Assembly (NCBI RefSeq): GCF_055900595.2
Contig: NZ_CM148325.1
Length of the DNA: 64,000 nucleotides
Reading direction: 5' to 3' (one strand)
Shown here: positions 36,764 through 41,160 of the stretch, piece by piece
How positions within the stretch are numbered: position 1 is the first letter of the stretch
How the letters are laid out: each line of letters begins with the position of its first letter
Position numbers and translations under genes: made by a program
Notes under the pieces: model-generated
Databases searched by the model: none
What the model was told of the DNA's origin: nothing
Seen by the model: the letters and a program-made list of their open reading frames with translations, nothing else

Positions 36764-37171
36764 CTATTTGCTCATCATCTTGCGCACCAGCTGCATAAAC
36801 AGCTCCTGCTCTTCTCCACTCAAACGCCCCAAAAATTCCTCATCCACACTGTCACCAATCGGTATCGCCGCAGCAAGTACCTTTTCTCCTTCGGCAGTCA
36901 GCCAGACAAAGCGTCGCCGCTTATCAGCAGAGTCATGTTCTCGTCTGACTAAGCCACGATTTTCCATTCGTGCCAGCATTTCTGCCAGCGTTGCTTTGGT
37001 GCTGACTGCTGCTTCCATCAGCGCAACCTGTTCGATGCCAGGCTTATCAGCAATGGCGCGCATCACCGCGTACTGCGGTTTGGTCAGGTCAGGTAGCTCG
37101 TGCTGCCAGCGAGATGTGTGCTGCTGAAAAAGCTGTCGTAACTGATGGAACGCTTTATTTCGTAACGCCAT
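36764..37171 (-). CDS. hosA: MarR/SlyA-family transcriptional regulator (HosA-like)
   Basis: MarR-type winged-helix ORF divergent from a UbiX/UbiD-like decarboxylase operon; 135 aa from the internal start MALRNKAF (ORF track gives 146 aa from 37204). Symbol from recollection of the HosA/hydroxyarylic acid decarboxylase pairing. Confidence 0.65.
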   Translation of the reverse strand: MALRNKAFHQLRQLFQQHTSRWQHELPDLTKPQYAVMRAIADKPGIEQVALMEAAVSTKATLAEMLARMENRGLVRREHDSADKRRRFVWLTAEGEKVLAAAIPIGDSVDEEFLGRLSGEEQELFMQLVRKMMSK

Positions 37172-37286
37172 GTAAACTCCGGGCAAACTATCTGCCGCTA
37201 TCATAGCGGTTTTTCAGTGACGCAGGGGATGTTGTTACTTTTCAGTGCTTGCCGCGATGAGAACAGAGGCGTATTTTAATAATAAC

Positions 37287-37300
37287 GTTCGTATACGAAC
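37287..37300. promoter_or_regulatory. Perfect 14-bp palindrome, candidate operator for the MarR-family regulator
   Basis: gttcgtatacgaac, about 20 bp upstream of the UbiX-like start codon, inside the divergent intergenic region. Confidence 0.45.
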
Positions 37301-37317
37301 AATTAAGAGAATTAACA

Positions 37318-37911
37318 ATGAGACTGATCGTCGGGATGACAGGGGCCACCGGAGCGCCTCTTGGTGTGGCATTACTGCAAGCGCTGCGGGAGATGCCGAA
37401 TGTCGAGACTCATCTGGTGATGTCGAAGTGGGCGAAAACCACCATTGAACTGGAAACGCTTTACAACGCCCGCGATGTTGCTGCCCTCGCAGACTTCTGC
37501 CATAACCCGGCGGATCAGGCCGCAACCATCTCCTCAGGTTCCTTTCGTACCGACGGCATGATCGTTATTCCGTGCAGTATGAAAACGCTCGCCGGTATCC
37601 GCGCTGGTTACGCCGATGGCCTGGTAGGGCGCGCGGCGGACGTCGTGCTCAAAGAAGGCCGCAAACTGGTGCTGGTGCCGCGTGAAATGCCGCTTAGCAC
37701 CATCCATCTCGAAAATATGCTCGCACTTTCGCGCATGGGCGTGGCGATGGTGCCGCCGATGCCTGCCTTTTATAACCATCCCGAAACGGTAGATGACATT
37801 GTCCACCACGTGGTAGCCCGCGTGCTGGATCAATTTGGCCTCGAACATCCTCACGCCAGGCGCTGGCAAGGATTGCCGCAGGCCCGGAATTTTTCCCAGG
37901 AGAATGAATAA
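37318..37911 (+). CDS. UbiX/Pad1-family flavin prenyltransferase (decarboxylase B subunit)
   Basis: MRLIVGMTGATGAPLGVALLQAL..., the UbiX N-terminal Rossmann signature; 197 aa. Confidence 0.85.
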   Translation: MRLIVGMTGATGAPLGVALLQALREMPNVETHLVMSKWAKTTIELETLYNARDVAALADFCHNPADQAATISSGSFRTDGMIVIPCSMKTLAGIRAGYADGLVGRAADVVLKEGRKLVLVPREMPLSTIHLENMLALSRMGVAMVPPMPAFYNHPETVDDIVHHVVARVLDQFGLEHPHARRWQGLPQARNFSQENE

Positions 37912-39593: not shown

Positions 39594-39623
39594 GGCCGGG
39601 TAGAGGCTTTGCTTTACCCGGCC
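39594..39623. terminator. Bidirectional terminator hairpin between convergent operons
   Basis: ggccgggta ... tacccggcc stem, with an A-run upstream and a T-rich tract downstream. Confidence 0.5.
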
Positions 39624-39626
39624 ACG

Positions 39627-40283
39627 TTATTTGATTTTATAAAATGACAGCCGCCCGCTTTTCGGCGATCCGGTATCAATATAAATCTGGTTTGCGAACG
39701 TCTGGATGTTATCAAACATCATATGACCGAAGATAAAGCAGTCGGCGCCGTTTATTTCCTGTAACTCGCCTTTGAGCGATTTCAGTACGCGATCAACAGG
39801 CCAGAGCAATTCTCTCTCCGCTATTTCTTTGCCAAAGAGATATTCATTCCCCGGATAATCTGCATGCGCGATGACATATTTTATTATGTCGTTAGTGATT
39901 TCAACAATATGCGGAAGATTATGAAAACGTAGCAACAGGTCTATTGCTTCTTTTTGTTCCGTATCACTTAACTCAAAGAACCAGTCGCCACCGCTGGCAA
40001 GCCACATATTGCCATCGCCGGTCGCGAACGCATCCAATGCCATCGCTTCATGGTTGCCTTTAACCGATGTAAACCAGGGCTGGTTTAGCAGGCGCAGCAC
40101 GTTAAGACTCTCCGGCCCACGATCAATATTATCGCCGACAGAAATAAGTAAGTCGGTTTCAGGGCAAAAAGATAATTGGTGCAGGCGGGATTGCAATAAT
40201 TGATAATCTCCATGAATGTCACCTACCACCCAGATATGGCGATAATGAGTGGTTTCAATTTTACGATAACGAATATCTGGCAT
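39627..40283 (-). CDS. pphB: Serine/threonine protein phosphatase (metallophosphoesterase, PphB/PrpB-like)
   Basis: 218 aa from MPDIRYRKIETTHYRHIWVVGDIHGDYQLL; GDIHG, GDNIDRG and GNHE phosphoesterase motifs. Symbol is tentative. Confidence 0.75.
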   Translation of the reverse strand: MPDIRYRKIETTHYRHIWVVGDIHGDYQLLQSRLHQLSFCPETDLLISVGDNIDRGPESLNVLRLLNQPWFTSVKGNHEAMALDAFATGDGNMWLASGGDWFFELSDTEQKEAIDLLLRFHNLPHIVEITNDIIKYVIAHADYPGNEYLFGKEIAERELLWPVDRVLKSLKGELQEINGADCFIFGHMMFDNIQTFANQIYIDTGSPKSGRLSFYKIK

Positions 40284-40305
40284 TGATCGCGTTCCGTAAA
40301 AAGAA

Positions 40306-41160
40306 TTATTCCGGCTTCTGAAACAGAATGGTGTTAATCTCGACATCAGTGATTGCGCCAGCTGCTTCTGCTTTATGTAACCAGTATAGCGCTTTGTCTT
40401 TATCCACACCGTTCTCATCAATGCCCCAGGCGTAAATGCGGCCTAAGGATATTTGGGCATGAGGTAAATCTTGTGCGGCAGCTTTTTCAAACCAGTATTT
40501 AGCCTGTTTAATATCAGCGGGTACACCATCGCCCGTTAAAAAGAGCGTACCATAATTATACTGACCAATTTTGTCGCCTTTTTCTGCGGCAAACTTAAGA
40601 TATGTCGCAGCCTGGAGATAATTCTTTTCCTCGGCTGCGAGGAGCCCTAAATTAGCATGTGCAATGGGGTTTCCCTTTTGCGCCGCTTTAACGAGCCAGG
40701 ATTTTGCTTTATCGATATCATGGAACTTCTCTGGACCAAACTGATAGATATTGGCACAGTTTATCTGTGCCTGAAGATTTCCCTGTCTGGCTGATTTCTC
40801 ATACCAGTGAATGGCATTCTGGTAATCCGGCGGTGTGTCTTCATCTCCCTGATGATATAAAAGCCCGACATAAAATTGCGCAATGTCATCTCCCTGACTG
40901 GCTGCCAGATTAAACCAGTAAAATGCTTTATCGCGGTTTTTAACCCCCGTTACCCCTTCCTGGTAAACAATTCCCAATCCTTTTTGCGCAGATTTATCGC
41001 CGCCTTGTGCCTTTGCGATGATATTTTTCAGGTTTTCCTGTTTGTTTTTAGAATAACGTTGTTCAGCCTGGATAAGATCATCAAGCGAGGGTTCTTTGGC
41101 ACAATAACCTGTAAGAGGAAAATGCAAAATTAGTAGAGTAAATAAAATTAACTTTTTCAT
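40306..41160 (-). CDS. Exported Sel1-like repeat (SLR) protein
   Basis: Signal peptide MKKLILFTLLILHFPLTGYCA followed by repeated Sel1 units (KAFYWFNLAASQGDDIAQFYVGLLY, AIHWYEKSARQGNLQAQ, AKSWLVKAAQKGNPIAHANLG, AKYWFEKAAAQDLPHAQISLGRIY). Confidence 0.75.
   Translation of the reverse strand: MKKLILFTLLILHFPLTGYCAKEPSLDDLIQAEQRYSKNKQENLKNIIAKAQGGDKSAQKGLGIVYQEGVTGVKNRDKAFYWFNLAASQGDDIAQFYVGLLYHQGDEDTPPDYQNAIHWYEKSARQGNLQAQINCANIYQFGPEKFHDIDKAKSWLVKAAQKGNPIAHANLGLLAAEEKNYLQAATYLKFAAEKGDKIGQYNYGTLFLTGDGVPADIKQAKYWFEKAAAQDLPHAQISLGRIYAWGIDENGVDKDKALYWLHKAEAAGAITDVEINTILFQKPE

Follow-up and report, generated by a model that had tools for sequence, protein, structure and literature searches.

The rpoS–mutS segment of a divergent Escherichia coli lineage: a probable O157:H7-type polymorphic form with an added Sel1-repeat gene

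The segment between rpoS and mutS in the window (the whole stretch of 64000 nt that was analysed, from contig NZ_CM148325.1 of RefSeq assembly GCF_055900595.2) is real, ordinary and already known, and a Sel1-repeat gene is its one little-described item. We consider it very probable (roughly 0.9) that the segment is the known O157:H7-type mutS–rpoS polymorphic form, short and ygb-less, with one added gene, and that it is composed of a hosA/ecdBCD unit and a Sel1–pphB unit in a recombination mosaic. The ORF listing gave six intact ORFs between rpoS (+) and mutS (−) (Table 1), and the RefSeq gene calls in identical genomes agreed with all six. The initial annotation had placed here a MarR-family gene divergent from a UbiX/UbiD/small-subunit operon, followed by a phosphatase and a Sel1 gene, and exactly this content was recovered using the ORFs, NCBIfam and Pfam. 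The locus, a textbook case of a hotspot of recombination, is used in E. coli typing, and the value of the analysis goes little beyond correct annotation; its useful outcomes are that the orientation of K-12 pphB was corrected, the regulator was named as HosA and a putative operator was placed.

Table 1. Features of the rpoS–mutS interval, in window positions
Feature	Position	Strand	Details
rpoS	35651–36643	+	Left anchor; ORF; annotated rpoS in identical genomes
Hairpin 3′ of rpoS, terminator-like	36657–36690	+	15-pair stem and T-run
hosA, MarR-family repressor, 135 aa	36764–37171	−	Divergent from ecdBCD; RefSeq: MarR family
Putative HosA operator, perfect 14-bp palindrome GTTCGTATACGAAC	37287–37300		18 nt 5′ of the ecdB ATG
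ecdB (vdcB/pad1-like), UbiX-family flavin prenyltransferase	37318–37911	+	NF041206 VdcB, 311.3 bits (cut-off 290)
ecdC (vdcC/yclC-like), UbiD-family decarboxylase, catalytic subunit	37911–39338	+	NF041204 VdcC, 787.6 bits (cut-off 650)
ecdD (vdcD/yclD-like), 78-aa four-cysteine small subunit	39349–39585	+	NF041205 VdcD, 120.5 bits (cut-off 30)
GC-rich hairpin where ecdD and pphB converge	39594–39623		12-pair stem, 8 GC pairs
pphB (prpB), Ser/Thr protein phosphatase 2	39627–40283	−	Equivalog NF007425, 454 bits (cut-off 332)
945-bp piece carrying the Sel1 gene	40284–41228		Absent from K-12 and O157:H7
Sel1-like-repeat protein gene, 284 aa	40306–41160	−	Stop 22 nt 5′ of the pphB start
Candidate Sel1 promoter (TTGGCT, 15-nt spacer, TATAAT)	41196–41222	−	35 nt before the ATG; read from the sequence
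Hairpin at the mutS stop codon, terminator-like	41232–41264	−	14-bp perfect stem
mutS	41269–43830	−	Right anchor; 853-aa ORF

Synteny analysis of K-12 MG1655 gave the order mutS–pphB–ygbI–ygbJKLMN–rpoS, so that ygbI–N do occupy this position in K-12 as the initial annotation had it, and K-12 differs in content from the window, having neither the decarboxylase operon nor the Sel1 gene in its rpoS–mutS interval. No homology to K-12 ygbI–N was detected anywhere in the window. The proposal that the genes of the window stand instead of ygbI–N thus holds for the decarboxylase operon and its regulator, but not for the phosphatase, as a pphB orthologue is present in both K-12 and O157:H7. The layout of O157:H7 is that of the window minus the Sel1 gene. 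The two are collinear across 33000–40283 and again from 41229 on, with 93–97% nucleotide identity over the operon and 88% over pphB, whereas the 945-bp Sel1 piece between pphB and mutS is found in the window and not in O157:H7.

Polymorphism at mutS–rpoS has been described as patterns I–IV, with a content that follows phylogroup and mutS exchange (PMC4209514), which bears out the initial annotation of the interval as a hotspot of this kind. 'Pattern I' is o454(ygbN)-negative, with slyA/hosA and yclC/kpdC between rpoS and mutS (Ewers et al. 2014, PMC4209514). The window likewise has no ygbN and has hosA and ecdC between its anchors, and it shares with pattern I/O157:H7 the order rpoS, slyA-like/hosA, pad1/yclC/yclD (kpdBCD, ecdBCD), pphB, mutS. 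The polymorphism was reportedly first described by LeClerc, Herbelin, Whittam, Culham & Wood, and Kotewicz in about 1999–2003. The gene order of E. coli 042 (NC_017626) is the same as that of the window, including a Sel1/TPR gene with a 24-nt spacer to pphB. However, the 042 Sel1 protein has 59% amino-acid identity to that of the window (~68% at the DNA level, with synonymous sites saturated), and pphB has 87% nucleotide identity. The Sel1 allele of 042, a strain which we take to be phylogroup D, clusters with that of Pseudocitrobacter and apart from the window allele. Citrobacter and Pseudocitrobacter also have the gene order of the window. The identity of HosA and the matches to the O157:H7 type (minus Sel1) and to 042 (with Sel1) were not part of the initial annotation.

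The three decarboxylase genes are adjacent, all on the plus strand, in the order ecdB (UbiX-like), ecdC (UbiD-like) and ecdD (small subunit), with the ecdC start and the ecdB stop sharing 1 nt. All three subunits exceeded curated NCBIfam cut-offs, and the family assignments are far above chance. EcdB has a near-identical match in PDB 1SBZ (E 9e-127), which bears the annotation probable aromatic acid decarboxylase; EcdC matches the phenolic acid decarboxylase of PDB 7AE4 (E 1e-159), and Cys3, Cys6, Cys28 and Cys31 of EcdD align with cysteines of ShdD (PDB 7AE4 chain a). Judged from family membership, ecdBCD encodes a non-oxidative hydroxyarylic acid decarboxylase of the Vdc/Bsd/Shd/Ecd kind, for which EcdB would supply the prenylated FMN (prFMN) cofactor; EcdC with EcdD, using prFMN, would convert 4-hydroxybenzoate and related hydroxyarylic acids into phenols by decarboxylation. 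The hairpin that follows ecdD probably serves as a bidirectional terminator.

Searches of HosA against several named MarR-family models gave weak matches below cut-off; at the amino-acid level it is 94–96% identical to its orthologues in O157:H7 and 042. Sequence comparison identifies the MarR/decarboxylase unit as the characterised HosA system, and the repressor gene is divergent from B–C–D in the window as in the published system. GTTCGTATACGAAC is part of a palindrome picked up in the hairpin/palindrome scan of the window, and together with its flanks it agrees with the HosA binding-site oligonucleotides in Table S1 of PMC6261655. In E. coli UMN026 and O157:H7, HosA binds its site and 4-hydroxybenzoate releases it from the DNA (PMC6261655; PMC13355054), a response for which both papers cite Roy & Ranjan 2016. 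By analogy, HosA of the window would sit on the 14-bp palindrome upstream of ecdB and 4-hydroxybenzoate would lift it off; this mechanism is carried over from near-identical orthologues in other strains, the identity figures being those to the O157:H7 and 042 proteins and the binding studies having used the UMN026 protein. The HosA/BCD operon of the window is an allelic variant whose proteins are 94–99% identical in amino acids to those of other E. coli. Nothing of substance sets it apart from the known HosA/BCD system, which is characterised as one for the detoxification and sensing of 4-hydroxybenzoate and is in use as a biosensor.

PphB of the window and K-12 PphB (b2734) share 87% amino-acid identity across 218/218 residues (86% at the nucleotide level), as well as their length (218 aa), a position adjoining mutS and the relative strand. 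The metallophosphatase motifs GDIHG, GDNIDRG and GNHE are all found in PphB, which also matches the lambda phosphatase 1G5B (E 3e-57). The co-directionality of the phosphatase gene with mutS had been thought to differ from K-12; this was incorrect, as pphB is on the mutS strand in both (mutS(+) pphB(+) in K-12 and mutS(−) pphB(−) in the window). The difference lies in what precedes the gene, which is the Sel1 gene in the window and directly the mutS terminator in K-12. The divergence of pphB from K-12 is ~3-fold the background divergence of the genome from K-12. Since neither the place nor the relative strand of pphB differs in K-12, the alignments identify pphB as a conserved orthologue at its usual place, that is, a divergent allele and not a replacement gene. 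In K-12, PphB is tied to the Cpx/misfolded-protein response.

Homology with K-12 and O157:H7 ends at 40283 and restarts at 41229, and ~66 bp is found there instead of the 945-bp piece. The product of the Sel1 gene, named 'tetratricopeptide repeat protein' in RefSeq, contains five PF08238 repeats (Pfam, E 1e-9 to 0.0022) and a weak sixth within residues 57–268. Its closest solved structure is PDB 4BWR, c5321 of E. coli CFT073 (E 7e-54), and it also matches ExoR, MotX and AlgK; the predicted fold class is settled by these Pfam and PDB sequence matches. The N-terminus MKKLILFTLLILHFPLTGYCA reads as Sec signal-peptide-like, a type of N-terminus conserved among the orthologues, and it does not match the usual lipoprotein lipobox pattern. 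Reading export from this N-terminus, the Sel1 protein most probably acts as a protein-binding scaffold, either in the periplasm or after secretion. A dN/dS of 0.10–0.17 indicates that the gene is under purifying selection. The consensus promoter scan reported no minus-strand promoter, missing the candidate of Table 1 because of its 15-nt spacer, and the gap from the Sel1 gene to pphB showed no predicted terminator. On the basis of spacing and consensus, with a 22-nt gap and no predicted terminator, the Sel1 gene and pphB are probably co-transcribed, and they would form a second unit, Sel1 gene then pphB, which lies beyond the mutS terminator and reads in the direction of mutS. Searching the literature for Sel1 together with mutS or pphB gave nothing relevant to a Sel1 gene at the mutS–pphB locus.

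Full-length matches to the segment were obtained in 192 of 5426 complete E. coli genomes. Approximately 2400 records matched at an identity of at least 90%, showing the decarboxylase operon to be present, and ~3000 matched pphB alone; the decarboxylase unit occurs in roughly 44% of the complete E. coli genomes. A Sel1 gene at the mutS–pphB site was found in 193 of the 5426 (~3.6%), and this undescribed gene with predicted export, placed before pphB, is the modest new point of the analysis. The two E. coli Sel1 alleles are very divergent (59% amino-acid identity), and E. coli shares these extremely divergent alleles with Citrobacter and Pseudocitrobacter. The window's allele was present in 11 of the 193 genomes, all belonging to one divergent lineage whose core genes are ~95–96% identical to those of other E. 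coli. This lineage is probably cryptic clade I, and the pphB and Sel1 alleles of the window are specific to this divergent group. The Sel1 gene could act as a lineage marker, and it may bear on PphB biology.

At the left anchor, rpoS has 97.9% nucleotide identity to K-12 rpoS, and the alignment to K-12 breaks off at 36689, within the hairpin after rpoS. Of eight identical genomes, seven match in two separate pieces and have an IS200/IS605 tnpA a short way past rpoS; in the remaining one the match begins at query base 45 (window 36688), adjoining a tnpA. At the right anchor, mutS has 99.5–99.9% amino-acid identity but only 94.4–94.9% nucleotide identity to K-12, O157:H7 and 042. Hairpins were predicted 3′ of rpoS, between the ecdD and pphB ends and 3′ of mutS; K-12 and O157:H7 have a comparable hairpin after mutS, with different stem bases. 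An Rfam scan of 35000–44600 gave no RNA families. The GC profile of the interval, a check proposed with the initial annotation, is a mosaic ranging from 42.9 to 58% (ecdB/ecdC 57–58%, pphB 44.0% and the Sel1 gene 42.9%) compared with 52.4% for the whole window.

The rpoS–mutS segment is very probably a recombination mosaic, and we give even odds to the view that the Sel1 gene and its pphB allele entered the lineage of the window and 042-type strains separately, once each, by homologous replacement across the mutS/rpoS anchors from other enterobacterial genera. Between 042 and Pseudocitrobacter the identity is 92% for Sel1, 91% for pphB and 94–95% for ecdC/ecdD, yet 86% for mutS and 81% for ecdB, and between genera dS is 0.2–0.3 for ecdC/ecdD compared with 0.8–0.9 for mutS. 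Furthermore, sister strains with 99–100% identical flanks diverge by 3–10% over hosA–ecdBCD, and exchange of mutS alleles is documented (PMC4209514). Separate entry is less easily reconciled with the window's own allele, for which no close donor was found, the best match being Citrobacter with 65–69% amino-acid identity.

Somewhat less probable, although still plausible, is that a Sel1 gene beside mutS was ancestral to Escherichia, Citrobacter and Pseudocitrobacter and was cleanly deleted in most E. coli, with the two alleles being old lineages. The gene is directly downstream of mutS in the three genera, its distance to pphB stays within 22–24 nt across Pseudocitrobacter, 042 and the window, and the two E. 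coli alleles have reached saturation at synonymous sites (pS 0.80), a greater divergence than that of mutS between genera (pS ~0.5). However, a detectable orthologue was present in just 2 of 100044 GTDB species representatives, and the 92% identity of the 042-type Sel1 allele to Pseudocitrobacter, compared with 86% for mutS, suggests lateral exchange rather than vertical descent. In addition, when the mutS–pphB spacers of K-12 and O157:H7 were aligned to the window's Sel1 flanks for a deletion scar, no Sel1 remnant was recognised in that of K-12. A recent strain-specific genomic island of 4.4 kb carried in by a mobile element is hardly credible: although GC departs from the window mean both ways and an IS200/IS605 copy lies at the rpoS end in related genomes, neither an integrase, a transposase, a tRNA nor flanking direct repeats occur in the window, the Sel1 gene has no plasmid orthologue, the decarboxylase unit is as frequent as given above, all of the genes are under strong purifying selection, the order is also that of E. 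coli 042, Citrobacter and Pseudocitrobacter, and the reading was rejected with the segment present at the same site across lineage members and outgroup genera. The search for direct repeats around the segment or the 945-bp piece gave short chance matches only, and a tblastn search of plasmids with the Sel1 protein gave no orthologue, the two 59% matches being chromosome-sized 4.9-Mb records that had been placed among the plasmids.

PADLOC analysis of the Sel1, PphB and HosA proteins gave negligible partial matches only and so no link to a defence system. That the Sel1 gene and pphB form an envelope-signalling operon, in which the exported Sel1 protein would sense or bind a periplasmic or host partner and work with PphB, the module being kept as very old allelic lineages and moved among Escherichia, Citrobacter and Pseudocitrobacter by mutS-anchored recombination, is an unlikely proposal. 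The periplasmic Sel1-repeat protein ExoR governs a sensor kinase in Sinorhizobium, and further bacterial Sel1-like-repeat proteins include HcpA–C and LpnE.

EsiB (c5321 of uropathogenic CFT073) has Sel1-like repeats and is exported, as is predicted for the protein of the window. The 4BWR chain is 467 aa long, presumably with 11 repeats, compared with 284 aa and ~6 repeats for the window protein, and the chromosomal loci differ; orthology to EsiB was rejected, the similarity being in partial stretches at the repeat level between proteins of different length and the gene lying at mutS–pphB. An EsiB-like role in host interaction, with the Sel1 protein binding secretory IgA or another host protein and its alleles diverging under immune pressure, we regard as very doubtful. 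The rank of c5321 as best solved relative, the apparent export and the high divergence of the alleles would fit such a role. However, the best stretch pairs query residues 81–261 with chain residues 221–401 and so is not collinear end to end, the dN/dS given above is not that of diversifying selection, and orthologues were found in Citrobacter werkmanii and Pseudocitrobacter corydidari.

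The six genes that the initial annotation placed between rpoS and mutS were all confirmed as intact ORFs with the same coordinates, and their starts agree with RefSeq calls in genomes of identical sequence. Terminator-like hairpins were detected 3' of rpoS, between the convergent ends of ecdD and pphB, and 3' of mutS; no Rfam family was found in the interval.

Features of the rpoS–mutS interval (window positions)
Feature	Coordinates	Strand	Remarks
rpoS	35651-36643	+	left anchor
IS200/IS605 tnpA site in matching genomes (no tnpA in the window)	~36688-36689		tnpA at 4191-4649 in L001 and 3435-3893 in L014 (loci from matching genomes)
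MarR-family gene (hosA)	36764-37171	-	intact ORF
ecdB	37318-37911	+	intact ORF, subunit B
ecdC	37911-39338	+	intact ORF, subunit C
ecdD	39349-39585	+	intact ORF, subunit D
pphB, phosphatase gene	39627-40283	-	intact ORF
Sel1-repeat gene	40306-41160	-	intact ORF
mutS	41269-43830	-	right anchor

The order in K-12 MG1655 is mutS(+), pphB(+), ygbI(-), ygbJKLMN(+), rpoS(-). Alignment with K-12 revealed no counterpart of ygbI-N anywhere in the 64-kb window, and pphB was the only K-12 mutS–rpoS intergenic gene that aligned (86%); thus K-12 has a different gene content at this site, as had been claimed. The initial annotation was right in the main and wrong on pphB: the K-12 gene, taken there to be convergent with mutS, lies on the same strand as mutS, as it does in the window, and the phosphatase is not replacement content, being a conserved mutS neighbour that K-12 also has. 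O157:H7 has exactly the gene order of the window minus the Sel1 gene. Alignment to both O157:H7 and K-12 breaks at 40283 and restarts at 41229, and the difference is therefore a 945-bp piece, compared with ~66 bp in those genomes. E. coli 042, by comparison, has the complete order, Sel1/TPR gene included. Four main patterns of the interval in E. coli were summarized by Ewers et al. 2014 (PMC4209514), among them an O157:H7-type pattern without o454/ygbN and with slyA and kpdBCD (yclC); the same paper links each pattern to phylogroup and also reviews what is known of recombination at mutS. The polymorphism of this site, noted initially, has been studied for a long time. The gene arrangement is already known and annotated, and the sole under-described element of the interval is the Sel1 gene that precedes pphB.

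The product of this gene contains five to six Pfam Sel1 repeats behind an N-terminus resembling a signal peptide. Two E. coli alleles share 59% of residues and are saturated at synonymous sites (pS 0.80). Since dN/dS was 0.10-0.17 where measurable, the gene is judged to be functional and under purifying selection. Its stop codon lies 22 nt from the pphB start in the window (the spacing is also 22 nt in Pseudocitrobacter, but 24 nt in 042), no terminator was predicted between the two genes, and they are probably co-transcribed. A candidate promoter (TTGGCT-15-TATAAT), located 35 nt ahead of the start codon of the Sel1 gene, is absent from the output of a consensus scan. The closest solved structure is c5321 (EsiB) of CFT073; as the likeness is at the repeat level only and the lengths differ, orthology with EsiB was rejected. 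The pphB product scored above the NCBIfam pphB equivalog cut-off (454 compared with 332 bits) and matched a solved relative, lambda phosphatase (PDB 1G5B). E. coli pphB alleles fall into at least three deep classes (window; K-12/O157:H7; 042) with 84-88% nucleotide identity, a divergence far exceeding the 2-6% of neighbouring genes.

Among 5426 complete E. coli genomes, the interval was matched over at least 80% of its length in 192. On our reading of the identity bands, the best match reached at least 90% identity in ~2400 records, which therefore have the decarboxylase unit, and in ~3000 pphB was the sole match, at 80-90%. The Sel1 gene occupied the mutS–pphB site in 193 genomes, 11 with the window allele (at least 99% identity) and 182 with the 042-type (~68% DNA identity). 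Outside E. coli, close homologues were confined to Citrobacter (64-69%) and Pseudocitrobacter (57%), with only generic Sel1 similarity (38% or less) beyond them; matches among 100,044 species representatives were limited to Citrobacter werkmanii and one Pseudocitrobacter MAG. In both genera mutS is likewise followed immediately by this gene, and ecdDCB and the MarR gene come next. Searches found no plasmid copy of the Sel1 gene, no repeats flanking the segment and no defence-system signal for the Sel1, PphB or HosA proteins. In pphB's place, the Citrobacter loci L005-L008 (~8980-9640) have an opposite-strand uncharacterized ORF of 153-208 aa with no Pfam match, and Citrobacter enshiensis retains a 133-bp pphB remnant, 71% identical to window 40141-40273.

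The decarboxylase operon was borne out, all three plus-strand genes scoring above the curated NCBIfam cut-offs for non-oxidative hydroxyarylic acid decarboxylase: subunit B, 311 bits (cut-off 290); subunit C, 788 (650); and subunit D, 120 (30). Among solved relatives, PDB 1SBZ is near-identical to EcdB, EcdC matched the ShdC-type phenolic acid decarboxylase PDB 7AE4 (E 1e-159), and the four cysteines of ShdD are kept in the EcdD alignment. The MarR-family gene is hosA. According to PMC13355054 and PMC6261655, which both cite Roy & Ranjan 2016, the HosA proteins of two E. coli strains, O157:H7 and UMN026, repress the decarboxylase operon, with 4-hydroxybenzoate as their specific signal. A 14-bp palindromic HosA site lies at 37287-37300, 18 nt upstream of the ecdB start, and with its flanks matches the oligonucleotide table of PMC6261655. 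By analogy with close orthologues, HosA would bind this palindrome and be released by 4-hydroxybenzoate; family membership suggests that EcdB would then supply prenylated FMN and that EcdC and EcdD would decarboxylate 4-hydroxybenzoate.

The core genes of the window are 95.1-95.4% identical to K-12 (1-15858, 41229-58373). A hyp-operon probe (46700-50700) reached at least 99% identity in just nine of the 5426 genomes, and 95.7-96.4% in genomes sampled across the remaining ranking. The source genome thus diverges by ~4-5% from K-12 and ~4% from the spread sample, which on these identities makes its lineage roughly equidistant from the mainstream of E. coli. The genome, filed as E. coli, probably belongs to a cryptic clade I-like lineage. 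Two sister strains, RMDEC465 and 2020CK-00188, match the window at 99-100% in nlpD-rpoS, in pphB and the Sel1 gene, and over most of mutS, but at only 90-97% across hosA-ecdBCD (36750-39600), which marks a recent recombination patch within one lineage. At a deeper level, ecdC/ecdD (37911-39585) are 93.5-96% identical at the nucleotide level between E. coli and Pseudocitrobacter corydidari (L009 9585-11259). Their dS between Escherichia and Pseudocitrobacter (0.2-0.3) equals that within E. coli, whereas mutS (0.8-0.9) and ecdB (1.1-1.2) show normal between-genus divergence. The 042-type Sel1 and pphB alleles are likewise 91-92% identical to those of Pseudocitrobacter. Together, these values indicate lateral exchange between genera, with a breakpoint near the ecdB/ecdC junction. 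For the Sel1 gene itself, we lean slightly towards separate import into two E. coli groups; an ancestral gene lost in most E. coli ranks slightly below separate import.

Several further differences were observed. IS200/IS605 tnpA lies just 3' of the rpoS terminator hairpin in all eight complete ~100%-matching genomes, and is missing from the window. In strain E200086, bamD/rluD/clpB flank the IS in place of rpoS, suggesting an IS-associated rearrangement. The rpoS of 2020CK-00188 (L013 3007-4000) is a frameshifted pseudogene, a further case of rpoS decay here, and its mutS (L013 8626-11172) is annotated 15 nt shorter. Between hycI and ascB, a ~740-bp piece that K-12 is without (K-12 2842552/2842553 are adjacent there) carries a gene (58377-59150) for a ~257-aa protein with a signal-peptide-like N-terminus. 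At ~61099-61111 the window lacks ~297 bp of K-12 ascF (K-12 2840260-2840557), which would amount to an in-frame loss of 99 codons from the cryptic asc operon. For the type I-E cas block of K-12 there is essentially no DNA-level counterpart in 15858-25503, apart from a weak 70% match to the cas1/cas2 end from 23565; ~9 kb of other sequence occupies its place (15858-24862). A run of short repeats at ~24805-25503 matches K-12 at 67-75% identity, both downstream of cas2 and around position 2,904,000, and looks like CRISPR arrays.
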